Of a DNA stretch of 64,000 nucleotides, positions 10,821-57,499 are shown piece after piece. The notes beneath the pieces are model-generated. The model saw nothing but the letters and a program-made list of their open reading frames with translations. It searched no databases and was not told where the DNA came from. Both the position numbers and the translations under genes were made by a program. The stretch covers positions 61,963 through 125,962 of the forward strand of contig CAWGDY010000034.1 of NCBI GenBank assembly GCA_963821395.1. Reading direction: 5' to 3'. Origin of the DNA: Vicinamibacterales bacterium. GTDB taxonomy: Bacteria; Acidobacteriota; Vicinamibacteria; Vicinamibacterales; JAMQPK01. How positions within the stretch are numbered: position 1 is the first letter of the stretch; each line of letters begins with the position of its first letter.

Positions 10821-10826
10821 AGAACA

Positions 10827-10865
10827 TAGGGATTAGGGATTGGGGATTAGGGATTAGGGATTAGA
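10827..10865 (+). repeat. TAGGGAT 7-mer tandem array (G-quadruplex motif)
   Basis: tagggattagggattggggattagggattagggattag contains five G3-4 tracts with 3-4-nt loops. Copies are at 17975-18015 and, inverted, at 19081-19113; 26331-26363 is partial. Confidence 0.75.
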
Positions 10866-10871
10866 AGACTG

Positions 10872-11462
10872 ATGGCGACTGGCGTGCTTCGAGTCGTGGG
10901 TGTGATGGCCGCGTTGGCGTTCCTGTTGCTCGCCGTGCCGCTCGAGCACGTCGATGAGCTCAGGACGGTGGACTTGTCCACCGTAGCGCCGTTAGGCGCG
11001 AAGGTGGAGGCCGCGCAGTCGCCGGCGTGCGACGCAAATCCGAAGGCCGCCAACCTGAACTTCGTGCTCAAGGATTCCAGCGGCAAGGACTTCAATCTCG
11101 CCTCGCTCAAGGGGAAAGTGATCCTGCTCGATTTCTGGGCGACGTGGTGTCCGCCCTGCAAGGTCGAGATTCCCTGGTTCGTCGAGTTCCAGCAGAAATA
11201 TGGGCCGAAAGGCCTAATCGTCGTGGGCGTGTCGGTGGACGACCCCGCGGCGGCGCTCGCGCCGTTTGGTGAAAAGTTCAAGGTGAACTACCCGCTGCTC
11301 GTCGGCGACGGCCGAGACGATATCAAGGGGCCGCGCGGCTACAACGCGGCGTGGGGCCTGCCAAAAACGTTCGTGATCGGCCGCGATGGAAGGATCTGTA
11401 AGACACACATCGGTTTGTCCGTTAAAGAACATTTCGAGCAGCAGATCAAATCGCTCTTGTAG
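10872..11462 (+). CDS. TlpA/ResA-like periplasmic thiol:disulfide oxidoreductase
   Basis: KVILLDFWATWCPPCKVEIPW is a thioredoxin-fold CxxC motif; an N-terminal hydrophobic anchor is present. Confidence 0.85.
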   Translation: MATGVLRVVGVMAALAFLLLAVPLEHVDELRTVDLSTVAPLGAKVEAAQSPACDANPKAANLNFVLKDSSGKDFNLASLKGKVILLDFWATWCPPCKVEIPWFVEFQQKYGPKGLIVVGVSVDDPAAALAPFGEKFKVNYPLLVGDGRDDIKGPRGYNAAWGLPKTFVIGRDGRICKTHIGLSVKEHFEQQIKSLL

Positions 11463-11477
11463 TAAGCTCAGAGGCAG

Positions 11478-11702
11478 ATGGCAAAAGGCTTCACACATGC
11501 CCGCCTCGCCTGTGGCTGCCGCGTCGCGTTTCGCGATGGCCTCGATGGAAGTCCGTACACCGTCGTCGTGTCCGACAAGGCCCCGGGCTGCCAGATTCGT
11601 CTCCACGTCCGCGATCTTCCGATCTACGACTACCGGGAAGCGCTGCGTCCGTCCACGCGCATCAGCCCCGCGGAGCACGAGGATTTCGAAGAAGAGACCT
11701 GA
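11478..11702 (+). CDS. hypothetical small Cys-containing protein
   Basis: 74-aa ORF MAKGFTHARLACGCRVAF..; weak RBS and no recognisable family. Confidence 0.3.
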   Translation: MAKGFTHARLACGCRVAFRDGLDGSPYTVVVSDKAPGCQIRLHVRDLPIYDYREALRPSTRISPAEHEDFEEET

Positions 11703-11708
11703 GTCGCT

Positions 11709-11816
11709 CGAATCTGAACAGAAGATCAGAAGGTCAGAAGAAACTTGAATCTGGAAGATCAGTATCAGTCAACTTCTGATCTTTAGATCTTCAGTTTTAG
11801 TTTTTAGATCTTCAGG
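11709..11816. repeat. periodic-arm hairpin (AGATC/GATCT units) between convergent genes
   Basis: gaacagaagatcagaaggtcagaag..ctggaagatcag faces cttctgatctttagatcttcag..tagatcttcagg. Confidence 0.65.
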
Positions 11817-11817
11817 C

Positions 11818-12555
11818 CTACTCAAACCCCACGCGCAGCTCCGCAAGAAACGGCAGATGGTCCGAGGCCATCAGCGATTTGCGCGTTCGCGGAATTTCGA
11901 CGCCTGCAATGTCGACCAGCCCTTCGTAGTAGATGTGATCGAGGTGCAGCAGAGGTAAGAGACCGGGGTAGGTCCGCCGCCGGCGCAGGTGCGTCCTGAG
12001 GTCGATCGCCTCGAGCCGTCTGGTGAGCTCCACGGTGGCGAGGCCGCCGCTCCACTCGTTGAAATCGCCCAGAAGGATTTTCGGCGGATGCACGCGGCCA
12101 TCGTGCACGATGGTGGCGAGCCGGCCTGCCTGATCCTTGCGCTCGCGATAGGCGGTGCCGAGGTGCACGTTGAAGAGGTGCAGCGTCCGGTCGTCGATGA
12201 GGATATCGGCGCGCTGGCAGCAGCGCGGCTCGCAGGTGCGCCACGACAGGTCGTACTGCACGTGCTGCCGGATGGGATAGTGCGAGAGGATCATGTTGCC
12301 GAATTGATGGCCGCGCAGGTGGCGCACCGAGGCCATCACCCAGCCCATCCCCAGCGCCGCGCCGATTTCCTCGGCGTGTCCCGAGTCGTTCGGGCCCGCA
12401 CCGATCACTTCCTGCAGCGCGATGACGTCGGCGTTCAGGCTGGCCAGCACCTGGATGGTGCGGTCGGGCACGGTCCGCCCGTCCATGCCGCGGCACCGAT
12501 GGATGTTGTAGGTGACGATTCTGAGAGTCTTATGATGGACCGGCGCGCGCATCAA
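11818..12555 (-). CDS. endonuclease/exonuclease/phosphatase (EEP) family protein
   Basis: LRIVTYNIHRCRG..LNADVIALQEV and the C-terminal SDHLP motif. Confidence 0.85.
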   Translation of the reverse strand: MMRAPVHHKTLRIVTYNIHRCRGMDGRTVPDRTIQVLASLNADVIALQEVIGAGPNDSGHAEEIGAALGMGWVMASVRHLRGHQFGNMILSHYPIRQHVQYDLSWRTCEPRCCQRADILIDDRTLHLFNVHLGTAYRERKDQAGRLATIVHDGRVHPPKILLGDFNEWSGGLATVELTRRLEAIDLRTHLRRRRTYPGLLPLLHLDHIYYEGLVDIAGVEIPRTRKSLMASDHLPFLAELRVGFE

Positions 12556-12827
12556 TCCAGGTCGAAGTCGCGCGTGGGCTTCGTAATCGGTTCTTCCTTG
12601 GCCTGTTTCAGCGCTTCCTCGAATCGTCTGGAGAGCGCATCACCCTTCGTGCGCTCGGTGTTGAACGATTGTTCGAACGCCGCTTCGCGGCGCGCCTTCT
12701 CGTCGGCGAGGATCCGTTGCGCGTCCGAGAGCTCGATGTTGAGCCCGGATGCCGGTTCCTTGTGGGCAACGACGCGTCCGAGATTCAGATCGATGACGAG
12801 CGTGGCGCCGCAGCAGGGACAGAGCAT
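12552..12827 (-). CDS. small zinc-ribbon protein (CPCC..), unknown function
   Basis: MLCPCCGATLVIDLNLGRVVAHKEP.. followed by a charged helical tail. Its stop overlaps the EEP start by 4 nt. The longer ORF N-terminus (to 12929) is repeat-derived. Confidence 0.5.
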   Translation of the reverse strand: MLCPCCGATLVIDLNLGRVVAHKEPASGLNIELSDAQRILADEKARREAAFEQSFNTERTKGDALSRRFEEALKQAKEEPITKPTRDFDLD

Positions 12828-12887
12828 CTCGCGCTCGGATTGAAGTCGAGCCGTATCTTTCGCAGCCACGGGACCATCATACTCTGG

Positions 12888-13717: not shown

Positions 13718-14566
13718 TCAGAGCAGGCGTTCCAGTTCGGTGACGAGATCCGTGGCTGTCCAATCGGCTCCAGCGTAGCTCTTGACGATTCTGCCGTCGC
13801 GACCCACCACGGTCGTCCGCAATGTGTGGCCGATCTCTTCCGGGTTCGCCGCCTGGCCTCTCACGAGCGTGACGAGCATGTTCGTGGCAAACCGATCGAT
13901 CGCCTCGCGCTCGCCGGTGACGAAATTCCACACTCGTGGATCGGATCGGAGTTTCTGCGCATGCGCCTTCAACACCGCGGGCGTGTCGTTCTTCGGGTCG
14001 AAGCTCACCGACAGCAGCGCGGCTTTGCCCGTGAGACCTTTCTCCTTGATGAGCGCCTGCGCTTCGGCGAACTGGCGATCCATCGCGGGGCAGAAGGTCG
14101 GAATCGGACACTTCGTGTAGATAAAGGTGATCGCGATGGGCCGGCTGGCGCGAATGGTATTGAAGTCGCGCTCGCGTCCCTCCTCGTCGACGAAGACCTG
14201 GTTGGGCACTTCGTCGCCGGGCATCAGGTATTTCGCGCCCGGCGCCGTTGGTGCCGGTGGCGGCACATCCGGTTTCGCGGTGCCCGTCTTCGTGATTTTC
14301 GTGACGACGGCCTGACTGCCGTCGACTTCGATTTCGCTCGTGATCAGGTCGCCGGCCTCGAGGGTGTCGAGCATGTTCGCCGTCCGCACTTTCCACGGCA
14401 TCGTCATCGCCGGCATGAGGCCCTTGATGTCCTCGTGTTTGACGAGAATCTCCATCTTGTCGCGGTTCACGCCGAGAATCTGGCCGCGCATTTCGTACGT
14501 CTTGGCGCTCGTGCACGCGGCCGCCAGGACGAGCAGCGCGGCGGCGCGAAAACCCCGGGATTTCAT
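13718..14566 (-). CDS. lipoprotein fusing a CusF-like Cu(I)-binding domain to a SCO1/SenC copper chaperone
   Basis: Lipobox LAAAC; HEDIKGLMPAMTMPWKV (CusF-type Met motif); thioredoxin-like FIYTKCPIPTFCP plus a later conserved His (GHTLRT). Confidence 0.8.
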   Translation of the reverse strand: MKSRGFRAAALLVLAAACTSAKTYEMRGQILGVNRDKMEILVKHEDIKGLMPAMTMPWKVRTANMLDTLEAGDLITSEIEVDGSQAVVTKITKTGTAKPDVPPPAPTAPGAKYLMPGDEVPNQVFVDEEGRERDFNTIRASRPIAITFIYTKCPIPTFCPAMDRQFAEAQALIKEKGLTGKAALLSVSFDPKNDTPAVLKAHAQKLRSDPRVWNFVTGEREAIDRFATNMLVTLVRGQAANPEEIGHTLRTTVVGRDGRIVKSYAGADWTATDLVTELERLL

Positions 14567-14594
14567 ACGTTAATGCTATGCTTTCCCGGAAGAC

Positions 14595-16176
14595 ATGAGC
14601 AAAGGGAAAACTCGTCGTATCGAGATCATGGATACGACGCTTCGCGATGGCGAGCAGGCCGAAGGCATCTCGATGATGCCCGAAGAGAAGCGCACCATCG
14701 CGCAGCGGCTGCTCGAGTCGGTCAAGGTCGATCGCATCGAGGTGGCCTCGGCGCGCGTCAGCGAAGGCGAACGGCGTGCGGTGAAGGCGATTATCGATTA
14801 CGCCGAGTCGAAGGGTCTCGCGAGCCGCGTCGAGATTCTCGGATTCGTCGATGGCAACCGATCGGTCGACTGGGCGAAATCGGTGGGCGCCCGCGTGATC
14901 AATCTTCTGACGAAGGGCTCGCTGCATCACTGCCGCGAGCAGTTGAAGAAGACGCACGAGCAGCATCTCGACGACATCCGCAGGACGATCGAGTACGGCG
15001 CGAAGAACGGCATCACGTTCAACGTCTATCTCGAGGACTGGTCGGGCGGCATGCTGCACTCTCCCGACTACGTGGTCGAGCACATCGACGCGCTCACCCA
15101 CATGCCCGTGCGCCGCATCATGCTGCCCGATACGCTCGGGCTGCTGCGCCCGGCGCAGGTGCGCGATTTCGTGAGCCAGATCATCCGCCGGTTTCCCGGG
15201 CCCCATTTCGACTTCCACGGCCACAACGACTACGGGCTGGGCACCGCCAACACGCTCGAGGCGGCCACTCGCGGGCGCCCACGGCGTGCACGTCACCGTC
15301 AACGGGATGGGCGAGCGCGCCGGCAACGTGACGCTCGACGAGGTTGTCGTCGCGCTGCGCGATCATGCGGGCATCAGAACGGCGGTCGACGAGCGATCGT
15401 TGTCCGAAGTCAGCAAGCTCGTCGAAGTGTTCTCGGGCCGCCGCGTGCCGGCGAACAAGCCCATCGTCGGGGAGAACGTGTTCACGCAGACCGCGGGGAT
15501 TCACGCCGACGGCGACATGAAGGGCAATCTCTACGAGAGCCGGCTCACGCCCGCGCGCTTTGGCCAGCACCGCACCTACGCGATGGGCAAGCTGATGGGG
15601 AAGGCGAGCCTCGACTTCAACCTCGAGCGGCTGAACATCGCGCTGTCGGCCGAGCAGAAGCAGCAGCTTCTGGCGCGCATCGTCGAGCTGGGGGATCAGA
15701 AGAAGAGCGTCACGCAGGCCGATCTGCCGTTCCTGATTTCAGAAGTGCTGCAGACCCGCGAGCTGCGCGTCTTCGAGGTGAAGGACTACTCGGTTGTCAC
15801 GAATCGCGGACTGCGGCCGACCGCGACGCTGCTCGTGCGCTACCGCGACCGCGAGCTGCACGCGACCGGATTCGGCGACGGCGGCTACGACGCCTTCATG
15901 CAGGCCCTGAAAAGCATCGAGAAGCAGCTGGGCTTCGAGCTGCCGAAGCTGCTCGATTATGAGGTTAGAATCCCACCGGGCGGCAAGACCGACGCCCTGG
16001 TGGAGACCACCATCAAGTGGGAAGGGGGCATGAAGACCCGCGGCGTGCACAGCGATCAGCTCGCGGCGGCGATTCAGGCCACGGAACACGCCATTAACAT
16101 GATCGCGCTGCGGAGCGCGCCACCTGCGAAAGGCACGGGTCACGGGCCAAGGGGCGAGGGGCGCTCAGAGGGATGC
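14595..16176 (+). CDS. cimA: (R)-citramalate synthase, Leptospira CimA type (one +1 frameshift; no stop of its own)
   Basis: IMDTTLRDGEQ, VDRIEVASARVSEGE, ILGFVDGN, NLLTKGSLHH, HFDFHGHNDY, then the next frame gives VNGMGERAGN, LVEVFSGRRVPANKPIVGENVFTQTAGIHADGD, YEVRIPPGGKTDALVET. An extra G lies near 15272 (cgcgggcgcc). Confidence 0.8.
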
Positions 16177-16596
16177 ATGGCACAGCTCAGCACAAAAAAA
16201 TCGCTGAATCTCGACGCGGCTAAGGCCATCGGCAATGCGGCCGAGGCCAAAGCCCGCGAGCTGAACTTTACCAACTGCGTCGCCATCGTCGACGATGGCG
16301 GCAACCTGATTTATCTCGTGACGATGGACGGGACCCAGGTGGGCAGCATCCACGTCGCGCAGGAGAAGGCGCTGGCGGCCCTCCGCTTCAAGCGCTCGAC
16401 CAAGCTGTTCCAGGACATGGTGACCGGCGACAAGCCGCACATGGCATTTCTGCCGGGCGCCGTGCCCGTGGAGGGCGGGCTGCCGCTGTTCGTCGACGGG
16501 CAGATCTACGGTGCGATTGGTGTCAGCGGAATGCCGTCAGACAAAGACGGTATCGTCGCCCAGGCGGGCGCCGACTTCGCCGCGACGCTGAAGTAA
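16177..16596 (+). CDS. GlcG/HbpS-like (DUF336) heme-binding family protein
   Basis: MAQLSTKKSLNLDAAKAIGNAAEAKARELN..VAIVDDGGNLIYL..GGLPLFVDGQIYGAIGVSG; in frame with cimA with no intervening stop. Confidence 0.75.
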   Translation: MAQLSTKKSLNLDAAKAIGNAAEAKARELNFTNCVAIVDDGGNLIYLVTMDGTQVGSIHVAQEKALAALRFKRSTKLFQDMVTGDKPHMAFLPGAVPVEGGLPLFVDGQIYGAIGVSGMPSDKDGIVAQAGADFAATLK

Positions 16597-17173: not shown

Positions 17174-17285
17174 GCATCATTGGCAGATTGGCAGAGTGGC
17201 AGATTGGTAGAGTCGCTCACTCACGCCTCGGACATATCCGCTGAGTCCTGCGAGCTCTTAGCCAATCTGCCAATTCCGATGATCC
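17174..17285. repeat. periodic-arm hairpin (GGCAGATT units)
   Basis: catcattggcagattggcagagtggcagattggtagag faces cttagccaatctgccaattccgatgatc. The right arm contains the DUF72 start codon. Confidence 0.6.
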
Positions 17286-17993
17286 TGCGTCGGCACTTCC
17301 GGCTACAACTATCCTGAATGGAAGGGGAGCTTTTACCCGGCCGATCTTGCGGCCGCGAAGATGCTCCCTTACTACGCGGCGCGGTTTCCCACCGTCGAGA
17401 TCAACTACACGTTCTACCGGATGCCCACGGAGAAGCTGCTCGCGGGGTGGACCAGGCAGGTACCGCCCGCGTTCAGATTCACGCTGAAGGCTCCCCGGCG
17501 GATTACGCACGACGCGAAGCTGGTCAACTGCGAGAAGCTGACTGCCGAGTTCTGCCACGTCGCCGGCACGCTCGGCGATCAACTCGCCGCGCTCCTGTTC
17601 CAGCTGCCGCCGTCACTGAAGAAAGATCTCGCACGGCTCGACGCGTTCATCGACACCCTGCCGCCGAAAGCGCCGGCGGCCTTCGAGTTTCGCCATCCGT
17701 CGTGGTTCGACGAAGAGGTGTTCGGCCGCCTGCGAGACCGGGGCCGGGCGCTGTGCGTGGCCGACAGCGAGAAGCTGGAAACGCCGCTCGAGGTGACCGC
17801 CGACTTCGGCTATTTCCGCCTTCGCGATGAAGGCTACCAGGCGGATGACATCAAGGAGTGGGCACGGAGGATTGGCGCGCTCGGCGATCGCTGCAGGGAA
17901 ATCTACGTGTACTTCAAGCACGAAGAGCAGGGCCTCGGGCCGGAGTTCGCCCGACAGCTGATGAAACATCTGGGACTGGGGAGTGGGGATTAG
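17278..17993 (+). CDS. DUF72 (YecE-like) family protein, +1 frameshift at codon 3-4
   Basis: ATG ATC C[T]G CGT.. Removing one nt gives MIRVGTSGYNYPEWKGSFYPADLAAAKMLPYYAARFPTVEINYTFYR, the canonical DUF72 N-terminus. The stop TAG lies inside the TAGGGAT array. Confidence 0.8.
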
Positions 17994-18056
17994 GGATTGG
18001 GGATTAGGGATTGGGTCAGTCGCAAGTCACAAGTCGGCAGTCAGAAGTCGCAAGGC
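17975..18056. repeat. left composite arm: GGGATT array + AGTCGCA-type array
   Basis: ggggattagggattggggattagggattggg + tcagtcgcaagtcacaagtcggcagtcagaagtcgcaagg. An inverted counterpart is at 19030-19113. Confidence 0.7.
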
Positions 18057-18264
18057 GAACCGGTCGTCCCACAGTTCGACGTAGCGCAATCCGATGTGTG
18101 CCTTCGGGCGGACAGGTAACGCTAGGCGACTAAGCATTACTGATGGCGTAAGCTTCGCCTGTCACTAGCGTTCTGAGGGGATTGCTTCGCACTGGCAGGG
18201 CGTGAGCGATGTTCTGGGTAACGGATTGCCGAACGCCACGAGTCTCATCAGAGGAGGCAACCGA

Positions 18265-18627
18265 TTGAAGTGGTCGCTGACCACACTGCCGTTGTTGGCG
18301 CTGTTCGCTTTCGTTGCAGGATGCCAACAAGCTGGGGGGCCGGCCAGAGCGACCGCGCGTCAGCAGGTTCACGAGTTCACGCCAGCTGCCTTCTACAACG
18401 AGTTCTCTCCCACGACGCCGCCAGTTCTTCGTGTCGCGCGGAGACACGAGCGACCAGGACTGACGCAGCCGGGATCGGCCGTGTGTCGGGGACCAGGGAC
18501 ACCAGTCGCAGTGCTGACCGCGCATCGTGTGAACCGCGCCGTCGCCGTCGTGCAACGACACGCGCGCGGCTCGGGTAAAGAAGGATTCCGGAACGAGGCG
18601 TTGAGGGGCGACCCAGCCGCTGATTGA
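18265..18627 (+). pseudogene. decayed lipoprotein gene remnant (possibly acetamidase/formamidase-like N-terminus)
   Basis: GAGGAGG lies 7 nt before TTG at 18265, followed by a lipoprotein signal (M)KWSLTTLPLLALFAFVAGC and ..FYNEFSPTTPPVLRVA. After that the sense is spread over three frames (RGDT / TRTDAAGI..). Family guess is weak. Confidence 0.35.
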
Positions 18628-19029
18628 GCTCGGTCATCACCCATGATCGAGCCCGTAGCGACGAATACACAACGCGCCAAGGGGCGGGGAGCTGAACAAC
18701 GGTCGCGACATTACCAGGGGCGGAGAGGAGTTCAACAAGCCTATCAATCACAACATGAGGGTCTACCTCAAGACCTCAGTGGATCGTGCCAACGCCGGGA
18801 GAAAATCTCGAACGCGCCTCTCTGCTCGACGTTTCAGGGTAGCCCGCTTACTCTCTGGCCAAATGGCTGACGCGCACCTTCACGATGGCGGGGAAGTCTG
18901 GACCTCGATAACAGAGGCGAAGCCGCTCGATAGAGATAACTCCCGATAAACGCCGCTGCGTTTACCGACCGAGTCCCGCCCTCTGTTGTCGCTAAATGGG
19001 TGTAAAGCGCGCCAGCGCATGTGCACACA

Positions 19030-19113
19030 AGGTGCGACTTCGACTTGAGACTGTCGACTTTCGACTTGCGACTTGAGACTGCTAATCCCCAATCCCTAAT
19101 CCCCAATCCCTAG
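19030..19113. repeat. right composite arm (inverted): AGTC-type array + CCCTAAT array
   Basis: The reverse complement tagggattggggattagggattggggattag + cagtctcaagtcgcaagtcgaaagtcgacagtctcaagtcgaagtcgca mirrors 17975-18056. It ends 4 nt from the hydrolase stop. Confidence 0.7.
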
Positions 19114-19116
19114 TTT

Positions 19117-20097
19117 TTAAGTGTGGTGCGTCAGAAAGTCCACGATCTCCCGCTCCGCCCAATACCCGTCGTACCCATTCCGCGCCTCTTCGACAAATCC
19201 GCAATGCCCGCCATGTGCCGTGAGCCGTACCGTGACGTGCGGGTTGCCGATGACGGCGCGCTCCTTGAAAGGTCCGGGCGGAACAAAGGGATCGTCCGCG
19301 GCCGTGATGATGAGCGCCGGCACGTTGATCCTGTCGACGACGCGCATGGCACTCGCGCGGTGGTAGTAGTCGGCGGCATCGCGGAAGCCGTGAAACGGCG
19401 CTGTGTACGCGTCGTCGAAGGCACGAATCGATGTGATGCCGGGCAAGGCGTCCAACGACCACTTGCCCGGCCACGCCCTGGCCTTGCGCCGCATGCGCCG
19501 CTTGAGGTTCCTCACGAAGTGCCACTGGTAGATGGCGTTTTGCCGTTCCTCGAGCGCATCCACGCACACCGCGAGATCCATGGTCGGCGAGACGGCGCAG
19601 ACGGCGCGCAGTTCGCGCGGCGGGTTCGCGCCGAAGTCGCCGGCCAGCTTCAGCGTCAGGTTGCCGCCCAGCGAATAGCCGGCGATCGCAAAGGCCGGAA
19701 GCCCGTCGACCTCGACGAGCTCGCGCATGACGGCGAGCGGATCGCCGGTCAGGCCGGAATGATACAGACCGTCCGACAGACGCTCCGTGCCGCCGCAGTT
19801 ACGCTGGTTGAGGCGAACGGCGTTGAAGCCGGCGGCGAAGGCCTTGTCGGCCAGTCCGCGCACGTAGTGCGCGTCGCTCGAGCTCTCGAGGCCGTGCAGC
19901 GCGATCAGTGTCGGGTGCTCCCACGGTTTCGGCTGCCAGTGACAGTGTGCGAGCACGCGTGTGCCCGGCGCCACATCGAACAGACGAGGTGTGGGGGGCG
20001 GCAGCGCGGGAAACGTGCGCGGGTTGCCCCACGCGTACAACGTCATCCAGTGCCCGCCCTTCCAGCGCGGGAGCGGCGAAAAATCAGCGGAGCTCAT
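19117..20097 (-). CDS. alpha/beta-fold hydrolase (YheT-like)
   Basis: Nucleophile elbow GYSLGGN, later D and H (..AHGGHCGF); length is typical. Confidence 0.85.
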   Translation of the reverse strand: MSSADFSPLPRWKGGHWMTLYAWGNPRTFPALPPPTPRLFDVAPGTRVLAHCHWQPKPWEHPTLIALHGLESSSDAHYVRGLADKAFAAGFNAVRLNQRNCGGTERLSDGLYHSGLTGDPLAVMRELVEVDGLPAFAIAGYSLGGNLTLKLAGDFGANPPRELRAVCAVSPTMDLAVCVDALEERQNAIYQWHFVRNLKRRMRRKARAWPGKWSLDALPGITSIRAFDDAYTAPFHGFRDAADYYHRASAMRVVDRINVPALIITAADDPFVPPGPFKERAVIGNPHVTVRLTAHGGHCGFVEEARNGYDGYWAEREIVDFLTHHT

Positions 20098-23478: not shown

Positions 23479-23653
23479 ATCATGATTCTACCGTCATAAT
23501 CCCGCCGAATGAACCGCGGCGATGCGGTGGGACGATATCGCATCGAATCGCCGCTGGGCGGAGGCGGGATGGGGCCTGGTCTTTCTCGCCGAAGACCTCA
23601 CGCTGGGCCGCAGACAACAAGCACGTCGTGTTTCTCTCTATTCAAGGCGCAAG

Positions 23654-23682
23654 CCAGGCAGGGCTGAAGCCCTGCGCTACCG
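23654..23682. repeat. REP-like family A copy (reverse orientation)
   Basis: ccaggcagggctgaagccctgcgctaccg. Confidence 0.65.
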
Positions 23683-23704
23683 AAGTCACAGTCGCCGGTG
23701 TTCC

Positions 23705-23785
23705 GCAATCTTGCCGTCAGCAATCTTCAATCAATCTGCCAATCTACCAATCTCACAATCTGCGAATTCACGATTCACCAACTCG
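23705..23785. repeat. CCAATCT-family array at the 3' end of the TPM gene
   Basis: caatcttgccgtcagcaatcttcaatcaatctgccaatctaccaatctcacaatctgcgaattcacgattcacc. Confidence 0.6.
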
Positions 23786-24614
23786 CTCCACCTCCACCAC
23801 CGCCGCTCCGTCCTCCACCGAATCCGCCAAACCCGCCTCCGAACCCGCCGCCGCCGATGCGTCCGCCGCCGCCGAACGGGCCGGCGCCGCTGTTCCAGCC
23901 GCTCCACGATCCGCCGCCCCAGTAGGGCGGTCCGCGCCGCATGCGCGATCGGCGGCCGCCGCCACCGCTGTTGCTGATCACGATGATGAGGATGATGATG
24001 GCGAGAACGACCCACGGGCTCACCTGGCTCACGCGCGGGATGACCTGGTTCGCCGGCTGCGGCACGCCGGTCAGCGTCACGCCGCGTCCCTGCGCGATGC
24101 GCGCGATGATGCGTGTCGCGCCGGCCAGCAGGCCAGGGCCGTACTCCCCGCGCACGAAGTACGGCCGCATGTCGTCGCGGCTCACCTCGCCCGAGAAGCC
24201 GTCGGTGATGAACTGCTCGACGTCGTAGCCGACTTCTACCCAGACGTCGCGATCCTTGACCGCAAGCAGGATGAGCAGGCCGTTGTCTTTGCCCTTGGCA
24301 CCGATGCCGCGCCCGCGGTTCTCGAACATCCTCACCGCGTATGCGCGAATGTCGGCGTACGGCGCGAACGTGTCGATCGTGGCGACGACCACGACATCGC
24401 CGCTCGCTTGCTTCAGGGCCAGGATGCGCCGCTCGATTTCCGCTTCGCTGTCAGCATCGATGACGTTCGCGAAATCGTTCACCGGGCGCGTCAGCTCCGG
24501 TGGCGGGCGTTGCGCGTAGACAGATGCGATGAGTGCGATAGGTGCGAGCACCGTCAACGTGATGCACGCGACATCGACGCCGCGAGCCGCGATGCGCGGG
24601 TTCGGCTGCAGCAC
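23775..24614 (-). CDS. TPM-domain (YgcG-like) membrane protein with Gly-rich tail
   Basis: VNDFANVIDADSEAEIERRILALK..GLLILLAVKDRDVWVEVGYDVE, a TM helix, then a GGGGxGG tail. Adjacent to lemA, the usual pairing. Confidence 0.85.
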   Translation of the reverse strand: MLQPNPRIAARGVDVACITLTVLAPIALIASVYAQRPPPELTRPVNDFANVIDADSEAEIERRILALKQASGDVVVVATIDTFAPYADIRAYAVRMFENRGRGIGAKGKDNGLLILLAVKDRDVWVEVGYDVEQFITDGFSGEVSRDDMRPYFVRGEYGPGLLAGATRIIARIAQGRGVTLTGVPQPANQVIPRVSQVSPWVVLAIIILIIVISNSGGGGRRSRMRRGPPYWGGGSWSGWNSGAGPFGGGGRIGGGGFGGGFGGFGGGRSGGGGGGASW

Positions 24615-25267: not shown

Positions 25268-25318
25268 TTCAGTCATCGGTTATCAGTCATCAGTTATCAG
25301 GCGTCAGTCGTCAGTTGC
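25268..25318. repeat. direct tandem array (CAGTCATC/CAGTTATC units) in a divergent promoter region
   Basis: ttcagtcatcggttatcagtcatcagttatcaggcgtcagtcgtcagttgcc; no inverted partner seen. Confidence 0.55.
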
Positions 25319-29825: not shown

Positions 29826-31909
29826 CGCACCATTGGTAGATTCGCAGATTGGTAGATTGGGAGATTACGAAGAAGTTCCTTGCGCCTTTGTGTCTTTGCG
29901 TTGAGACGAAGCATTTCCAGTAACGCCACTTGCACGCGCGCGTCGTTGAAGCACGCGCCGCCGCCGAGATCGGTCAGCGAATCGGGGACGAGCGTGTTGG
30001 CGGTCGACTGATTCCAGGTGCTCTTCCGCCATAACCCCTTCGGCAGCGAGACGGTGCCTTCCCGGATCGCGTCGTCTATTTTCACCGCGCATTGCACTTC
30101 GCCCAGCTCGTTGAACATTCTGATCGGATCGTCCTGTTTCAGGCCCCGCGACGCGGCATCGGCCGGGTTCATCACGACCGCGACTCCGGGCCGTGGCAGC
30201 TCGCCGAGCGTCGAGCTGATGGTTTTGTCGCTCGCCGGCGAGATGAGCGCGAGCGGAAACCGTTCCGAAGACGGATCGTCCTGGTAGGTGTACAACCCGG
30301 TCGGCGCTTCCGCTTCGAGCGCCTCCGGGAAGAGATCGACTTTGCCGTCGAACGTCCTCGGCATGACGTCGACGAACTGAACGGGGCGCAATCCAAACGG
30401 GGGGACGGCCTGGCCCGTGTCGCCGATCTGCGTGCCGGCATCGCCCGGCAGCGCCTTGAACACCTCGAGCAGCATGTCGAGCTCGTTGTCGGTTTCACCG
30501 GATTCGAGCAGGTCCATGCGTTTCGCGAGCTCGCCGAAGACCTCGGGATTCGATCGCGACTCGCCCACGGTGTCGATGACCGGCCTCACGAGCTGCAGGC
30601 TCAGCGGCCCGTACCCTTTCGCGAAATCGTACGCTTCGAGAAATGTGGTGGCCGGCAGGATGACGTCGGCGTATGCCGCCGTGTCGGTCATCACCTGATC
30701 GAAGACGACGGTGAAGAGATCGTCGCGTGCCATGCCCTGGAGCACGCGCTGCTGATCGGGCAGGGTCGCGACCGGGTTGGCGTTGTACACGAACATCGCC
30801 TTGATGGGCGGATCGGAGGGTTCCGTCAGCGCGCGTCCGAGCTTGTTCATGTTCACGATGCGCGTGGCCGGTTCGGGGCCCAGCCAGGGCTTGGTGATAT
30901 TCCAGGCGCTGGAATTGCTCATCGAGTAACCGCCGCCGCGCACGCCGAACTTGCCGGCCACCGCCGGCAACGCCAGAATCGCCATCGCCGCATTTCCGCC
31001 GTTGCGATTGCGCTCGAGTCCCCAGCCGCAGCGCACGAGCGCAGGCGACGTGCTCGCGTAGTCCTGAGCCAGCTGGTGGATCGCGGCCTCCGGGACGCCC
31101 GATATTTCGGCCGCGCGCTCGATCGTCCATGCCGCCGCTCGACCGCGGAGACGCTCGGCGCCCCTGGTGTGCGCCGCGATGAACCCGGCGTCGGCAAGCC
31201 CTTCCTCGAACAGATAACGATGCATCGAGAGCGCGATGGCGACGTCGGTGCCCGGTCTGGGTGCGATGTGGAGATCGGCCTGACGCGCGAGCGGCGTCGC
31301 ACGCGGATCGATGACGATGAGCCGGGCGCCCTGCTTCTGCGCCTGCCGGACGTACGGCACCAGGTGAATGCCCGAGGTCGAAGGGTTGACGCCCCAGAGA
31401 ATGATGAGGCGCGCTTCAGGGTAGTCCTCGTAGGTGACGCACGGCATCTTTCCGTACATCGCCTGTGCCGCGGTGCCCGTCGGCGCCGCGCACACCGTGC
31501 GCCCCAGACGGGACGTGCCGAGGCGCCGGAACAAAATCGCGTCCAGCGTGTCCTGCGTCAGCAAGCCGTTCGAGCCGCCGTAGGAAAACGGCAGGATCGC
31601 TTCCGGGCCCCACTTCTCCCGTACCTCATTCAGACGACCGACGATCATCTCGAAGGCTTCTTCCCAGGTCACGCGAGAGAAACGGGCCTGGCCTTTCGGG
31701 CCGCTGCGCACGGCGGGATGGCGCAGCCGCGCCTCGCCGTACACGCGGTCGCCGAATTTCCTGACCTTCGCGCAAATGTATCCGCCCGTCGGCGCGTTGA
31801 GCATCGAGCCGTCGATGCTGACGAGGCGTCCCTCGCTGACGGTGACGGCGAGACTGCAGGAATCAGGACAGTCGAGAGGACAGGCGGTGTCGACGACGAC
31901 GTTTTCCAT
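29798..31909 (-). CDS. molybdopterin (bis-MGD) oxidoreductase, DMSO-reductase superfamily
   Basis: N-terminal 4Fe-4S motif [11 protein letters not shown], then molybdopterin-binding blocks throughout. The last ~45 aa (..[18 protein letters not shown]..) are read from the repeat spacer and overlap gdh by 28 nt. Confidence 0.85.
29832..29868. repeat. TAGATTG/CAGATTG array
   Basis: attggtagattcgcagattggtagattgggagattacg. Confidence 0.6.
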
Positions 31910-34654: not shown

Positions 34655-35551
34655 GTGTCCAGCAAAATCGGATTCATTGGTCTCGGCATCATGGGCAGGC
34701 CCATGGTGAAAAATCTGTTGAAAGCCGGCCACCAGGTGACCGCGTACGACATCGTGCCCGCGGGGCTGGAGGACGTCGTCGCGGCCGGGGCGCAGAAGGG
34801 TTCGTCGCCGAAGGATGTGGCCAGTAAGACCGACATCGTCATCACGATGGTGCCGGATGGGCCCGAGGTGGAGCAGGCCGTCCTGGGCCCCAACGGCGTC
34901 CTCGAAGGCGTGAAGAAGGGCTCGACGGTGATCGACATGAGCTCGATCAGCCCGATGGTGGCGCAGAAGGTGGGCGCGGCCCTCGAGGCCAAGGGCGTCG
35001 ACTTTCTCGATGCGCCCGTCAGCGGCGGGGAGCCCAAGGCGATCGACGGCACGCTGGCCATCATGGTCGGGGGCAAGAAAGAGGTCTTCGACAAGATGGA
35101 GCCGATCCTGAGGACGATGGGGGCGACCGTGACGCTCACGGGCAAGGTGGGTGCGGGCAACGTGACGAAGCTGGCCAATCAGATCATGGTCGCCGTCAAC
35201 ATTGCCGCGATGAGCGAAGCCCTGGCGCTGGCGACCAAGGCGGGACTCGATCCGGAAGTCGTGTTCAATGCCGTCAAGGCCGGTCTGGCCGGCAGCACCG
35301 TGCTGAACGTGAAGGCGCCGATGGTGTACTCGCGCAACTTCAAGCCCGGCTTCCGCATCCGCCTCCATCAGAAGGACCTGCGCAACGCGCTCCTGGCGGC
35401 CGAGTCGCTGAAGGTGTCGCTGCCGCTGACCAGTACCGTGCAGAACATGCTCATCGATCTGATGAACAACGGCAAAGGCGACCTCGACCATTCGGCCATC
35501 GTGCAGGTCATCGAGCAGGCCTCGGCGGTCGAGGTGAAGAAGCCGAGTTAG
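34655..35551 (+). CDS. NAD(P)-dependent 3-hydroxyisobutyrate / tartronate-semialdehyde reductase family oxidoreductase
   Basis: GTG start; IGFIGLGIMGRPMVKNLLKAGH..DAPVSGG..AG.G...K..NQ pattern of the 6-PGDH-like beta-hydroxyacid dehydrogenases. Confidence 0.85.
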   Translation: MSSKIGFIGLGIMGRPMVKNLLKAGHQVTAYDIVPAGLEDVVAAGAQKGSSPKDVASKTDIVITMVPDGPEVEQAVLGPNGVLEGVKKGSTVIDMSSISPMVAQKVGAALEAKGVDFLDAPVSGGEPKAIDGTLAIMVGGKKEVFDKMEPILRTMGATVTLTGKVGAGNVTKLANQIMVAVNIAAMSEALALATKAGLDPEVVFNAVKAGLAGSTVLNVKAPMVYSRNFKPGFRIRLHQKDLRNALLAAESLKVSLPLTSTVQNMLIDLMNNGKGDLDHSAIVQVIEQASAVEVKKPS

Positions 35552-35643
35552 TCGCAAGGCGCAGGTCGAAAGTCGGGAGGCGCAAGGCAAGTCGGAAGGC
35601 GCAAGCGGGAATGCGGTAGCGCAGGGCTTTAGCCCTGCCAGGG
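35550..35643. repeat. GCAAGG/AGTCG array followed by a REP-like family A copy
   Basis: gtcgcaaggcgcaggtcgaaagtcgggaggcgcaaggcaagtcggaaggcgcaagcg + gcggtagcgcagggctttagccctgccaggg. Confidence 0.65.
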
Positions 35644-41502: not shown

Positions 41503-41607
41503 CTATTCGCAGATTGGTAGATTGCGAGATTCGCAGATTACGAGGTTCGCGGAGTTCAATCTGACAATCAATCTGCGAATCTACCAATCTGCCAATCTGC
41601 GAATTCA
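41503..41607. repeat. periodic-arm hairpin (CAGATTGG / CCAATCTG units) between convergent glcE and glcD
   Basis: cgcagattggtagattgcgagattcgcagattacgagg faces caatctgacaatcaatctgcgaatctaccaatctgccaatctgcgaattc. Confidence 0.75.
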
Positions 41608-55879: not shown

Positions 55880-57499
55880 TCAGGCGACGGCTTCGGGTAA
55901 TGGACGCGCCCGCGCTTCCGGCGGCAGCTCCACGTACGCGCGTTCGCGGCGCCGCGCCTGTTGGAACCGTTCGAAGACGTTGCGCTGCGCCTCGAGCCCG
56001 ATCATGGATCGCAGGGTGGTTCCGGCAAAAACGTACCTGGTCATCTCGGGCCAATGCCGCAGCACGAACGATGGGCTGTGCAGGAATGCGGCGGGCAGGT
56101 GCTTCAGCTTCATCCACCGTTCCGCGCGCCATCGCATGAACTCCACCTCGGTCGCCGGCACATGTTTCGTGCGAACGACGGCGGTCGTCCCATCGTAGTG
56201 CGACATGTCTTCGTCGACGATCAGGCGGTCCTGGCGGAATTGCTGCGTCATGGGCGTGCGCGGATAGGGCGTCGGGTGCTGAATGTACGGCCAGTCCACG
56301 TACTGCCGGGCGAACTCGAGATTCGTCTCGATCGATTCGCGCGTGTCGTCGGGGTTGCCCACGATGAGCCCGCCGACGACGAAGAGGCCGTGACGATGGA
56401 GATGATCGATGGCTTCGATGGTGGCGTTCCCGCCTTGCCCGAGCCCGTGGCGCGCATTCTTCGCCCGTGCCTTGAGAAAATCGAGATCGCTCTCGAGGAT
56501 GTTCTCGATGCCAAGGAAGACGTACCGGAACCCCGCCCGCTTCATGAGCGGCGCGAGCGTCGCGCCGTGCTGCGCCAGGGGCGAGGTCATGGCCTGCACG
56601 AAATACTCGATGTCGTTCAGGCCGGCGTCGATAATCGCCTGACACAACAGTTCGAAACGCCGGATGTCGAGCGTGATGTTGTCGTCGACGAGGAAAATCG
56701 CCCGCGCACCGTGGTTGCGGGCGTCGGTAATGTCGGCGAGCACGCGATCGATGGAATAGACGTGAAAGTTGCGGCCGCGCATCTCGATGATGGAGCAGAA
56801 GCTGCAATCGTAGGTGCAGCCGCGCGACGTTTCCACGACATCCACCTGGCGGCCGAGCAGCGTGTAGCCCTCGAGGACTCGAGCCGCCCTGTTGGGAAGC
56901 CGCAACGGATCTGATTTCAGGTTCGTGATGGCCCTTTCCGGCCCGTGAACCCATCGGCCGGTGAGTGGCGGGTCTTGAAGTGCAAGACCCGCCCTACGTT
57001 CGCCGTGACTCGAGTAGGGCGGGTCTTGCTTTCCAAGACCCGCCATGCAGCGGCTCGAGAGCCCCGCGATTGACGGCAGGGGCCCGCCGGCTTCCAGTGC
57101 GCGCAGTAGATCGCAAAATGTCTGTTCGCCTTCGCCGCGGACCAGGAAATCCACGTCGTCGCACGATTCGTAGGCCGCCGGCGCGAGGCTGGGATCGTAC
57201 CCGCCCACCACAATCCGTGTCGCGGGGCTGAGGTGTTTGACGAGCCGGGCAATCTTGAAGGCGGTCGCCCGCTGAAACGTCATCACGGACATGCCGACGA
57301 CATCGGGCTGGTGCTCGCGCATCAACCGCTCGACGGTGGACACGACCCGGGACTGCGCGAGGATCAGATCGGCGATCGCGACTCGATGATGCGGGTCGAG
57401 ATTTCCGGCGATCGACGACAGCGCGCCGTTGGGCATGCGCACCACCATCGATGGCATGTGCTCGAAGGAATCGGGCATCGAGAGGAGGAGGATATTCAT
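55880..57499 (-). CDS. B12-binding-domain radical SAM protein carrying an in-frame 78-nt palindromic insertion
   Basis: N-terminal cobalamin-binding-like fold (DVVGMSVMTF..VVGGY), radical SAM CTYDCSFCS. The inserted peptide ..MAGLGKQDPPYSSHGERRAGLALQDPP.. lies between the two domains. Confidence 0.85.
   Translation of the reverse strand: MNILLLSMPDSFEHMPSMVVRMPNGALSSIAGNLDPHHRVAIADLILAQSRVVSTVERLMREHQPDVVGMSVMTFQRATAFKIARLVKHLSPATRIVVGGYDPSLAPAAYESCDDVDFLVRGEGEQTFCDLLRALEAGGPLPSIAGLSSRCMAGLGKQDPPYSSHGERRAGLALQDPPLTGRWVHGPERAITNLKSDPLRLPNRAARVLEGYTLLGRQVDVVETSRGCTYDCSFCSIIEMRGRNFHVYSIDRVLADITDARNHGARAIFLVDDNITLDIRRFELLCQAIIDAGLNDIEYFVQAMTSPLAQHGATLAPLMKRAGFRYVFLGIENILESDLDFLKARAKNARHGLGQGGNATIEAIDHLHRHGLFVVGGLIVGNPDDTRESIETNLEFARQYVDWPYIQHPTPYPRTPMTQQFRQDRLIVDEDMSHYDGTTAVVRTKHVPATEVEFMRWRAERWMKLKHLPAAFLHSPSFVLRHWPEMTRYVFAGTTLRSMIGLEAQRNVFERFQQARRRERAYVELPPEARARPLPEAVA
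56967..57044. repeat. intragenic double-hairpin palindromic element (78 nt, in frame)
   Basis: GGCGGGTCTTG-aagtg-CAAGACCCGCC CTAC gttcgccgtgactcga GTAG GGCGGGTCTTG-ctttc-CAAGACCCGCC. Confidence 0.8.

Follow-up and report, generated by a model that had tools for sequence, protein, structure and literature searches.

Two inverted periodic arrays, now some 1 kb apart, lie between two convergent genes of this Vicinamibacterales genome. We give a probability of about 0.6 to the reading that these arms are the resident halves of a gene-end palindrome whose apex serves as a recurrent slot for DNA capture and replacement, the acquisition of DNA at that point having moved the halves to their present distance of ~1 kb. 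The locus is most likely a small insertion hot spot and not a mobile element. Its present 817-bp cargo is dead DNA, a truncated gene start fused to non-coding DNA. Coordinates throughout are those of the window, that is, the whole 64-kb stretch of DNA that was analysed, and the features are collected in Table 1.

Table 1. Features of the split palindrome and the genes beside it, in window coordinates
Feature	Position	Strand	Description
DUF72 gene	17361..17993	+	ORF; Pfam PF01904, E 4e-61
Left arm	17972..18056	+	GGGATT(A/G) heptamers 17972-18015, then AGTCNNN heptamers 18018-18056; G-rich in the DUF72 sense
Left inner flank	18057..18130	.	88-92% conserved in L073, L001 and L002; in no other sequence examined
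Cargo segment A	18131..18439	+	Upstream region, RBS 18251-18257, TTG 18265 and first 58 codons, including a lipoprotein signal peptide; acetamidase/formamidase-like, truncated
Cargo segment B	18440..18948	.	Non-coding; ends in the conserved motif GAGATAACTCCCGATAAACGCCGCTG
Right inner flank	18949..19029	.	93-99% conserved in L073, L001 and L002; starts with CGCCGCTGCGTTTACCGACCGAGTCCCGCCC
Right arm	19030..19113	+	GACT-type heptamers 19033-19080, then AATCCC(C/T) array 19082-19112
Alpha/beta-hydrolase gene	19117..20097	-	ORF; Pfam PF00561, E 7.6e-15

RESULTS

Two-module arms at the ends of two convergent genes

The initial annotation described 17975-18056 and 19030-19113 as inverted copies of one two-part array, and inverted-repeat search, TRF and alignment all agree. 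On both sides the arm is a two-module heptamer array, (GGGATT)n followed by (AGTCNNN)n. The inverted-repeat search pairs 17975-18007 with 19082-19114 (33 nt, 94% complementary) and 18018-18050 with 19041-19073 (33 nt, 85% complementary), and TRF reports period-7 arrays at 17972-18015 (GGGATTG), 18018-18054 (AGTCGCA), 19033-19080 (TGCGACT) and 19084-19112 (AATCCCC). In local alignment, the full left arm scores 36.5 against the reverse complement of the right arm, whereas dinucleotide shuffles give 7.4 +/- 1.4 (maximum 14.5) and no unrelated pure GGGATT array in 1.65 Mb of related DNA exceeds 29.5. The concern that the arms might be no more alike than any two GGGATT arrays is thereby answered, and the excess comes from the second (AGTC) module. 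A scan of the same 1.65 Mb found two-module GGGATT+AGTC arms at the orthologous locus only.

Each arm adjoins the stop codon of one of the two convergent genes. On the left, the GGGATT array encodes the last ~7 codons of the DUF72 gene (GLGSGD) together with its TAG stop, and the DUF72 C-terminus differs in relatives without the array; an exact-sequence look-up of the DUF72 protein returned no record. On the right, the hydrolase stop codon lies 3 nt from the arm, and the hydrolase sense strand reads stop, (GGGATT)n, (AGTCNNN)n, the order seen after DUF72. A terminator scan found no U-tract or intrinsic terminator at the arms, and the five-T run after the right arm is not conserved in the relatives L073, L001 and L002. 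A classical intrinsic-terminator role is therefore unsupported.

Closed and filled states in relatives

Searching a genome collection with the hydrolase confirmed 526 related stretches, 80 of which were kept, nearly all titled Vicinamibacterales/Acidobacteriota. The synteny comparison proposed in the initial annotation finds DUF72 and the hydrolase facing each other at most of the 80 loci, usually with a gap of 0-150 bp, and the pair is syntenic across the Vicinamibacterales. The relatives are metagenome-assembled genomes with indel errors. In one of them, L079, the locus is closed: the 153-bp gap between the genes has the same two modules on both sides and no cargo, and the closed hairpin folds as DNA at -42 kcal/mol (z = -7.2). 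A hydrolase-protein search for further alleles of the window's own species gave best matches only 85-88% identical, so no empty-site allele was obtained.

Other relatives are filled, each with its own cargo. Between the window and L073, L001 and L002 the flanking DNA is 94-97% identical, and the window's cargo shares no sequence with theirs. L073 carries 6.3 kb with four genes on both strands (a kinase, an ECF sigma factor, a peptidase-like gene and an APC permease), L002 carries 3.1 kb with a kinase, and L001 carries 2.1 kb with the permease. Cargoes of 1.5 kb with a GDSL-like hydrolase, 0.95 kb, and about 350 bp with a gene fragment occur in L008, L003 and L014, respectively; L014 also has a DDE insertion sequence within its right arm. 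L091 and L093 have the hydrolase-side arm alone. In an NJ tree, each of the two sister clades has members with two-module arms, which means that the arms predate the individual cargoes. Outside the group, the nearest relatives of the L073/L001 permease include several annotated Gammaproteobacteria (60-68% identity). A nested-deletion test explained L001 as a deletion derivative of L073; as a model for all four cargoes, nested deletion was rejected, as it leaves the identical outer boundaries of unrelated cargoes unexplained.

Two readings that the initial annotation listed separately were DNA inserted in a hairpin loop, and a pseudogene with one terminator half left to each neighbour. Both were largely right: L079 is closed without cargo and the interior is acquired DNA, and the arms belong to the convergent genes while the interior holds a truncated gene. 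The two readings describe the same situation.

The third reading, a TIR-bounded MITE-like cassette, is unsupported. The window does present ~80-nt imperfect inverted repeats around non-coding DNA, and eukaryotic foldback elements have tandem-repeat inverted ends. Still, the idea that the periodic arms are the terminal inverted repeats of a MITE-like or foldback-type non-autonomous transposon strikes us as extremely improbable. The sequences just outside the arms, ...ACATCTGG and GTTTTTAAGTG, contain no direct repeat and hence no target-site duplication. The left arm lies inside the DUF72 reading frame and supplies its stop, and the locus is single-copy, the two-module arms and inner flanks occurring at no other locus in the sequences examined. 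Moreover, both arms remain at the empty site of L079, they stay in place while the cargo differs (L073, L001, L002, L003, L008, L014), and one arm can stand alone. Plasmid, phage and viral collections gave no matches. Such arm pairs should not be annotated as MITEs.

The cargo of the window is a gene fragment joined to non-coding DNA

Segment A of the cargo (18131-18948) is 87-88% identical at the DNA level to L081 and L082, and its ~58 residues are 84-86% identical to the metagenome proteins P0001 and P0002. This homology backs the gene start originally proposed, with GAGGAGG at 18251-18257, a 7-nt spacer and TTG at 18265. P0001 and P0002, themselves truncated, score 20.1 and 17.6 bits against PF03069, the acetamidase/formamidase family, below its 27-bit cut-off, and Pfam gives no PF03069 match for the window's fragment. 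The gene had been described as dissolving into three reading frames. We find no frameshift decay; instead, the gene is cut at codon ~58 (about 18439/18440), and at about 18440 the homology changes from L081/L082 to an unrelated soil-metagenome contig, L083.

Homology to L083 covers 18440-18848 and 18923-18956 (84% by BLAST, about 93% outside three larger indels), and the 75-nt stretch 18849-18923 is absent from L083. Single-nucleotide indels occur in both segment B and L083. Because one housekeeping gene or more in the window assembly contains a 1-nt indel, single frameshifts alone are unreliable evidence of decay; the presence of the same non-coding stretch in the independent contig L083 backs the decay of the window's cargo.

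As first reported, the interior holds only short ORFs, which are not protein-like, and a Pfam search of ten of them gave nothing above noise. The lower GC content ascribed to the interior is found at its two edges (0.55-0.58) but not in the middle (18300-18700), where GC is gene-like (0.65-0.675). Rfam searches, of the region at E up to 10 and of the whole window at gathering thresholds, gave no match to the feature; the four chance-level matches (E 1.5-7.5, far below gathering scores) are outside or irrelevant to it. A tRNA search of the interior and plasmid and phage BLAST of the whole interior were negative, and neither a 27-mer of the cargo nor the junction motif described below had a match among viral contigs. 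In annotation, the ORF fragment between the arms is best labelled a pseudogene remnant.

Cargo boundaries and inner flanks

An inner flank separates each arm from the cargo. Its length is kept at about 75-80 bp on each side in the closest relatives, and among the sequences examined it was found elsewhere only in L073, L001 and L002; a 19-mer taken from the left inner flank had five matches in a metagenome collection, all of them unrelated and due to chance. The left flank ends in GGGCGGACAGGTAACGC (18106-18122), half of a small palindrome, plus GGCGAC (18125-18130), and all four genomes (window, L073, L001, L002) diverge directly after this hexamer. The start of the right flank, CGCCGCTGCGTTTACCGACCGAGTCCCGCCC, is the imperfect complement of the left flank's end, and the small palindrome can be written GGTAAACGC..GCGTTTACC. 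Positions 18117-18121 (GGTAACGC in the window, GGTAAACGC in relatives) and about 15267 are candidate indel-error sites. Complementarity between the inner flanks is confined to the ~30 nt beside the cargo; beyond that, pairing is no better than chance, and a long palindrome running through the flanks was rejected on this ground. Neither sequence comparison nor the metagenome 19-mer scan found an empty version of the inner-flank palindrome.

The cargo boundaries are the same to the nucleotide in the window, L073, L001 and L002: three or four unrelated cargoes follow directly on GGCGAC (TGCGAC in L002), and their other end is at (A/T)AACGCCGCTG. On the sequences compared, these identical boundaries hint at site-specific cassette exchange. 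Non-autonomous cassettes would then enter and leave as circles via a short site, served by a recombinase encoded elsewhere; the chromosomal target would be the centre of GGTAAACGC..GCGTTTACC, and the circle junction would join ...GAGATAACTCCCGATAAACGCCGC to GGCGACTAAGCATTACTG.... Such exchange would add a mechanism to the palindrome-slot reading without replacing it, and we regard it as possible but not likely.

Several observations fit this exchange. Homology between the window and L082 begins right after GTCGAC, and the deletion separating L001 from L073 ends right after CGCGAC. In L083, and between two genes inside the L073 cargo, the right-end motif of the window (or of L002) is joined to its left-end motif, the topology expected after integration of a circle. 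By BLAST, the L083 and L073 internal sites match over 36 nt at 89% (E 6e-4), and the L073 internal site matches the L002 right end over 19 nt at 95% (E 0.002). Across 1.65 Mb, the motif GAGATWACTCC...AACGCCGC is confined to these junctions, and a reconstruction of the empty target forms a hairpin (z = -3.1). On the other hand, the left-end halves share just ~9-10 exact bases, too few for BLAST significance, the junction sites have no significant structure (z = -1.15 and +0.38), and the L001/L073 junction lies 35 nt off the expected crossover. No cargo encodes a recombinase, the junctions number only about six, and the empty target was not seen. A test of cassette mobility through the L073/L001 permease gave no support: its 90%-identical homologues in L089 and L090 stand in other contexts without junction motifs or arms. 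The cassette behaviour first attributed to this locus is unsupported with the arms as ends; it may hold one level inward, for a cargo with fixed boundaries inside conserved inner flanks.

Periodic gene-end arrays elsewhere

The arms are one case of a wider habit of this DNA. The 64 kb of the window hold at least 10 unit families with periods of 6-9, and the arrays or hairpins start 0-7 nt past stop codons. Genome-wide, array pairs no more than 60 nt apart are inverted in 51 cases and direct in none, and the count within 150 nt is 59 to 0, which argues that arrays are generated or kept as inverted copies. The closed hairpin forms fold strongly. Their loops had been put at under 25 nt, which is only roughly true: the arrays of closed periodic hairpins in the window are 0-52 nt apart. 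At least seven intergenic arrays in the window lack any partner, about as many as there are closed hairpins; partnerless arrays stand right after stop codons at 10827, 23732, 25269, 28303, 29832 and 35550. In the literature we found no description of periodic gene-end hairpins in the Vicinamibacterales.

Given such arrays, the two arms might be independent gene-end arrays that never formed one hairpin, with ordinary variable intergenic DNA and a pseudogene between them. Partnerless arrays after stop codons are common, both arms are G-rich (GGGATT first) in the sense of their own gene, L091 and L093 have only the hydrolase-side arm, and the unit variants of the arms do not co-vary within a genome. 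We nevertheless judge this unlikely: although the window has at least 10 unit families, both genes carry the same two modules and in one order, the two-module array is absent from the rest of the 1.65 Mb, close pairs are always inverted, and L079 has both arms as one closed hairpin.

A second hairpin of the window, closed at 11719-11812 and also between convergent genes, shows the closed/filled contrast as an independent replicate. In L010, L004 and L092 the orthologous hairpin consists of 8-nt arrays bracketing a ~540-bp insert with a four-helix-bundle ORF, which scores 26.4 bits against PF05635 (23S_rRNA_IVP-like), under the Pfam threshold of 33.8. A resident core zinc-ribbon gene, which in the window has no such arms, is flanked by complementary 9-nt arrays in L008, L014 and L012. 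A resident gene cannot have been inserted, which shows that complementary arms can also form on either side of DNA already in place.

These bracketed genes raise the prospect that the arms are a stem in which the 5' and 3' ends of an enclosed transcript fold for processing or stabilisation, like the stems of 23S rRNA intervening sequences, the window's copy being a relic after the death of the enclosed gene. The arrays around the zinc-ribbon gene and the 23S_rRNA_IVP-like ORF would fit, as would the retention of arms around every cargo at this locus. Yet cargo length varies between 0.35 and 6.3 kb and the cargo genes lie on both strands, so that there is no common transcript, the arms belong to the 3' ends of the outer genes and extend into the DUF72 coding end, the window's zinc-ribbon gene is without arms, and the arms do not covary. 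We therefore consider such a stem very improbable.

Certain observations also weigh against the palindrome-slot reading itself, namely that L079 is the only fully closed two-module example found, that single arms occur (L091, L093) and partnerless arrays are about as frequent in the window as closed hairpins, that complementary arrays surround the zinc-ribbon gene, that the searches yielded no empty inner-flank palindrome, that the arms lack a U-tract, and that the relatives are metagenome assemblies with indel errors.

DISCUSSION

The preferred reading of the locus as a split palindrome suggests the following course. In this lineage, tandem arrays of 6-9 nt units stand right after stop codons and are often paired with their own inverted copy into long periodic hairpins. 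With (GGGATT)n(AGTCNNN)n on both genes and no intervening DNA, the copies form one ~150-nt hairpin, as in L079, which may serve as a bidirectional 3'-end or terminator-like element. We infer that the closed state came first and the filled state second: in the window's lineage, DNA would have been acquired at the palindrome apex, pushing the halves ~1 kb apart, and the slot would then have kept turning over, leaving four unrelated cargoes with the same boundary nucleotides in four genomes. The apex could be hit through hairpin or cruciform breakage followed by DNA-capturing repair, or through hairpin-targeting recombination. After the split, each arm probably persists alone because a gene end can do with a single array, of which the many partnerless arrays are examples. 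The analysis shows directly that the arms are homologous, that closed and filled states exist, that each relative has different cargo, that the window's cargo is dead and that MITE features are absent; the order of events, the cause of apex targeting and the terminator-like role go beyond this.

A bolder proposal holds that the centres of periodic gene-end palindromes in the Vicinamibacterales are dedicated DNA entry points, where non-autonomous cassettes with short conserved ends (GGCGAC... ...AACGCCGCWG) are swapped, precisely at the middle of a nested palindrome, by a remote recombinase or by hairpin-directed break repair; the window would then contain one slot with a dead cassette. We consider it more doubtful than the site-specific exchange discussed above; if true, it would describe a means of gene capture unlike either integrons or REP-targeting insertion sequences.

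Several known systems resemble parts of this picture. The insertion sequences IS1397 and ISKpn1 insert into the loops of palindromic units. Intergenic REP/BIME palindromes have been described as insertion hot spots (Tobes & Pareja 2006, PMC1525189). The likeness lies in hairpin-forming extragenic repeats at gene ends that repeatedly receive DNA, including the DDE insertion sequence in the right arm of L014. REPs, however, are many near-identical copies of one 20-40 nt consensus, whereas here each hairpin has its own 6-9 nt unit, and the inserts are mostly gene-sized or junk DNA without transposase rather than insertion sequences.

Heptamer tandem arrays (STRR) are known from Cyanobacteria. TAACTGA repeats occur in Beggiatoaceae, Cyanobacteria and Bacteroidetes, almost all as direct repeats with a single inverted case (PMC4679880); in the window, TCAGTTA units, the reverse complement of TAACTGA, lie at 25269-25315. 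These arrays share with ours the 7-nt unit, an intergenic position beside coding-region ends and variability among relatives, but the published ones lie mostly upstream of start codons, while those described here follow stops and are usually paired into hairpins.

Variable islets, or integration hot spots, occur between conserved convergent genes. Conserved flanks and strain-specific cargo, including gene fragments and horizontally acquired genes, are common to both; what differs here is that the slot coincides exactly with the centre of a nested palindrome and that its boundaries are nucleotide-identical in four genomes. Integron cassette arrays and att-flanked elements without their own integrase (CIME-type) likewise offer non-autonomous units with fixed ends; apparent tandem accretion in L073 and a junction resembling a rejoined site are further likenesses. 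In contrast to these systems, no cargo between DUF72 and the hydrolase contains an integrase gene (intI) or other recombinase, there are no RYYYAAC/GTTRRRY boxes and the site forms no significant hairpin. The lack of attC boxes, the folding scores given above and the multi-gene cargo on both strands led us to reject an integron. A weak-match ORF between long complementary arms, as in L010, L004 and L092, recalls 23S rRNA intervening sequences (PF05635), but the locus is not in rRNA and the split hairpin of the window has no such ORF.

The Vicinamibacterales are abundant in soil and little studied for genome mechanics. Two orthologous hairpins in closed and filled states, together with four nearly identical genomes carrying four cargoes between the same boundaries, point to a reproducible site of gene gain and loss in this group. 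Should the boundaries reflect site-specific recombination, they would define a small cassette system that is new; should they stem from breaks at palindrome centres, the locus would illustrate cleanly, in nature, how a palindrome can drive DNA capture.

RESULTS

Two periodic arms form one inverted pair

In the window, a DUF72 gene and an alpha/beta hydrolase gene converge and enclose the region studied here (see the table). The TAG stop of the DUF72 gene lies inside the GGGATT(A/G) array, whose GGGATTAG units (17972-17993) also supply its last codons, and the right arm, which mirrors the left, is 3 bases from the hydrolase stop. The initial annotation had described the arms as mutual inverted repeats, and the pairing is real and beyond chance. 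An inverted-repeat search gave two 33-nt matches, 94% and 85% complementary, and the full arms reached a local alignment score of 36.5, against 7.4 +/- 1.4 for dinucleotide shuffles. Across 1.65 Mb of related DNA, unrelated arrays of pure GGGATT scored no higher than 29.5. The match exceeds that of any two GGGATT arrays because the second module is common to both arms.

Features of the DUF72/hydrolase site and DNA held there in relatives
Feature	Window position	Strand	Size	Content
DUF72 gene	17361-17993	+		Pfam PF01904, E 4e-61
Left arm, first module	17972-18015			period-7 array GGGATT(A/G), at DUF72 stop
Left arm, second module	18018-18056			period-7 array AGTCNNN
Window cargo	18131-18948		817 bp	
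Segment A of window cargo	18131-18439			upstream region, GAGGAGG ribosome-binding site, TTG start at 18265, 58 codons
Right arm, inner module	19033-19080			GACT-type array
Right arm, outer module	19082-19112			AATCCC(C/T) array
Alpha/beta hydrolase gene	19117-20097	-		Pfam PF00561
L073 cargo			6.3 kb	Ser/Thr kinase with beta-propeller, ECF sigma factor, peptidase-like gene, APC permease
L002 cargo			3.1 kb	kinase, ~70% identical to L073 kinase
L001 cargo			2.1 kb	L073 permease only
L008 insert				GDSL-like hydrolase gene
L003 insert				small membrane ORF and REP-like hairpins
L014 insert				~350-bp fragment and DDE insertion sequence

Short-period arrays are abundant in the window and start 0-7 nt past stop codons; some overlap or directly follow the stop (17972-17993, 35548-35560, 10821-10830). 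About 10 closed periodic hairpins, with 0-52 nt between their arrays, accompany at least seven intergenic arrays that have no partner, and the DUF72/hydrolase arms are the sole long-distance pair. Over the window and the loci L001-L083, 51 array pairs at most 60 nt apart were inverted and no such pair was direct; for pairs more than 2 kb apart the orientations were equal (29 inverted, 25 direct). The inverted excess at short range therefore marks periodic hairpins as a real feature of these genomes. Literature searches turned up no account of such periodic hairpins in Acidobacteria.

Certain unit families recur. An 8-nt unit, ATTGGCAG, or its complement CAATCTGC occupies four intergenic sites (17179-17213, 23732-23767, 29832-29866, and 41505-41604), so unit families are common to different sites; it is a closed hairpin at 41505-41604, may form another at 17179-17213, where a weak partner follows after ~47 nt, and is single at the remaining sites. 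The GGGATT arrays that were read run G-rich, in a telomere-like orientation, along the sense strand of the preceding gene, which suggests G-quadruplex potential. The partnerless array at 25269-25315 consists of TCAGTCA/TCAGTTA units, and TCAGTTA is the reverse complement of TAACTGA, a heptamer that is reported to be abundant between genes of Beggiatoaceae, of Cyanobacteria, and of some Bacteroidetes (PMC4679880). Fixed-sequence REP-like hairpins (for example GCAGGGCTTTAGCCCTGC, GTGTCCGGCTTCAGCCGGAC, and GGGTCTTGCA..AAGACCC) also recur, often just inside periodic arms, at 839-939, 35610-35640, and 56957-57054 and in intergenic regions of the related loci L003, L012, and L059. A 12-nt tandem repeat (23824-23890) overlaps an ARAGORN call of a tRNA-Ser of 90 nt whose anticodon, ACT, is unusual (23867-23956, minus strand); an Rfam scan of the whole window gave no tRNA at the gathering threshold, and the call may be false or degenerate. 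Near 23600-23775, the relative L073 carries an additional ~3 kb.

The site is closed in one relative and differently filled in others

A hydrolase scan of species-representative genomes confirmed 526 related stretches. Of the 80 loci retained, almost all have Vicinamibacterales or Acidobacteriota in their titles, and in most of the 80 DUF72 is convergent to the hydrolase, usually at 0-150 bp. The empty and filled states envisaged in the initial annotation both exist. In L079 (hydrolase identity 83%), a 153-bp gap has both arm modules on each side, and these form a closed hairpin devoid of cargo (folding as DNA, -42 kcal/mol, z = -7.2). The nearest relatives by DNA identity, L073 (96-97%) and L001 and L002 (94-96%), are filled: they retain the arms and conserved inner flanks (18057-18130 and 18949-19029), between which they share nothing with the window. 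The same arms enclose still other inserts in the more distant L008, L003, and L014. In L014, the DDE insertion sequence has ~35-nt terminal repeats and sits between the two right-arm modules. One or both arms are lost in L007, L012, L091, and L093. In a tree built by neighbour joining from three flanking proteins, two-module arms are present in both sister clades, and the arms therefore predate every individual cargo.

Other loci carry different elements at this site. L009 has a 1.3-kb insert (10966-12258) bounded by an ~85-nt palindromic element in two inverted copies (..GACGTTCTGCTCGCGGGC..GCCCGCTCAGCAGAACATCG..), and L010 (10960-11290) has a single copy of it; this looks like a separate family of small palindromic repeats. 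L011 (10960-11325) has another periodic pair (units of the AGGAGAA/GGGAGAA type with their complement), separated by ~280 bp of unrelated sequence.

It had also been suggested that the interval is a MITE-like cassette bounded by terminal inverted repeats. This reading was rejected: the arms lack a target-site duplication, the left one lies within the DUF72 reading frame, and the arms stay when the cargo is absent or replaced. No second locus was found for the arms (in 1.65 Mb of related DNA) or the inner flanks, an inner-flank 19-mer gave chance matches only in a metagenome collection, and viral, plasmid, and phage collections gave no match. Tested for membership, the site did not fall within the integron family either.

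The window's cargo is a fusion of two acquired pieces

The 58 codons of segment A include a lipoprotein signal peptide. Its DNA is 87-88% identical to the metagenome contigs L081 and L082, and its protein is 84-86% identical to the metagenome proteins P0001 and P0002, which continue into a weak acetamidase/formamidase match (PF03069, below threshold). This homology ends at 18439/18440, where segment B starts, homologous to a different soil contig, L083 (BLAST, 84% over 433 aligned positions; ~93% identity outside three larger indels). Both segment B and L083 have single-base indels, and a 75-nt stretch is in the window only. Thus, of the gene start said to dissolve into three reading frames, the ribosome-binding site, TTG, and lipoprotein signal stand. 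The gene was lost not through frameshifts but through truncation, by fusion to non-coding DNA. The decay is real, since the non-coding stretch is common to the independent assembly L083, and this support matters because elsewhere the window has a 1-nt insertion breaking a housekeeping ORF that is intact in L001 and L002. No RNA family, tRNA, or promoter-like or terminator-like signal stood out in the cargo interior.

That insertion (15255-15275; GGCCACTCGCGGG versus GGCCA-TCGCGGG in L001, L002, and L073) splits a citramalate/isopropylmalate-synthase-like ORF of ~695 aa, with an HbpS/GlcG-like domain at its C-terminus, into pieces at 14595-15962 and 15286-16596; the cause is either an indel in the assembly or recent pseudogene formation. 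In L081 (8488-11289), the truncated acetamidase-like fragment lies between an ORF with a weak HNH-endonuclease match, just under the Pfam threshold, and a second ORF that by eye resembles the N-terminal region of an acetamidase-like protein, with no Pfam hit. The acetamidase-like fragment is therefore also found in an arm-free context.

Cargo boundaries coincide in four genomes

Similarity among the window, L073, L001, and L002 stops at the same nucleotides on both sides: the left boundary follows GGCGAC (TGCGAC in L002), and the right boundary lies at (A/T)AACGCCGCTG. The inner-flank ends are imperfectly complementary (GGGCGGAC-AGGTAAACGC versus GCGTTTACC-GACCGA-GTCCCGCCC) and, once joined, would fold into a small hairpin (z = -3.1); the large palindrome thus contains a second, nested one, with the cargo at its centre. 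Likewise, window/L082 homology starts directly past GTCGAC, and the deletion in L001 relative to L073 ends directly past CGCGAC. Contiguous sequences in L083 and inside the L073 cargo read as the right-end and then the left-end motif of the window (or L002), and the motif GAGATWACTCC...AACGCCGC was found nowhere else in 1.65 Mb. Such a joined motif is the expected remnant of a circle integrating through that site, but the support for it is uneven. The right-end halves match significantly (E 0.002 for 19 nt at 95%; E 6e-4 for 36 nt at 89%). However, the left-end halves share just 9-10 exact bases, the junction sites lack significant folding, no cargo contains a recombinase, and a 90%-identical permease is present elsewhere without cassette ends. 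We regard site-specific cassette exchange as a live addition to the main explanation, though one less likely than not.

A second hairpin and a counter-example

Also between convergent genes, the window has a closed hairpin of 8-nt period (11719-11812). With flanks aligned, it is orthologous to a hairpin in L010 (18057-18742), L004 (16298-16857), and L092 (~14090-14680), where the arrays GGGATCTA/TAGATCCC enclose a ~540-bp insert encoding a four-helix-bundle protein (weak 23S_rRNA_IVP match, E 8.6e-6, below the Pfam threshold). The closed/filled pattern is thus repeated at another site.

In L008 (17508-17983), L014 (18107-18725), and L012 (15992-16539), complementary 9-nt arrays (GGTGCGNTA / TANCGCACC) bracket a zinc-ribbon gene of ~105 aa, a conserved resident across the order that has no such arms in the window (12555-12869, minus strand); the gene before it takes its TAG stop from the upstream array. 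Complementary arms can thus also arise ~400 nt away, around existing DNA, and for this reason the closed-to-filled order at the DUF72/hydrolase site is less than certain.

DISCUSSION

Most likely, a closed hairpin came first, followed by insertion at its apex and then by repeated replacement. Each arm would have been kept since a lone array at a stop codon is viable by itself, and the hairpin may serve as a 3'-end or terminator-like element. Targeting of the apex could reflect breakage of an extruded hairpin with DNA capture, or recombination directed to the palindrome centre. Of known systems, the nearest are palindromes of the REP type that serve as insertion targets (PMC1525189), the heptamer arrays of Cyanobacteria and Beggiatoaceae (PMC4679880), and variable islets flanked by conserved genes; integron cassettes and the intervening sequences of 23S rRNA offer a looser likeness. 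At the DUF72/hydrolase site, the arms are most likely halves of one palindrome resident at the gene ends. Between them is a slot whose content differs in every close relative, filled in the window by acquired DNA that is now dead.
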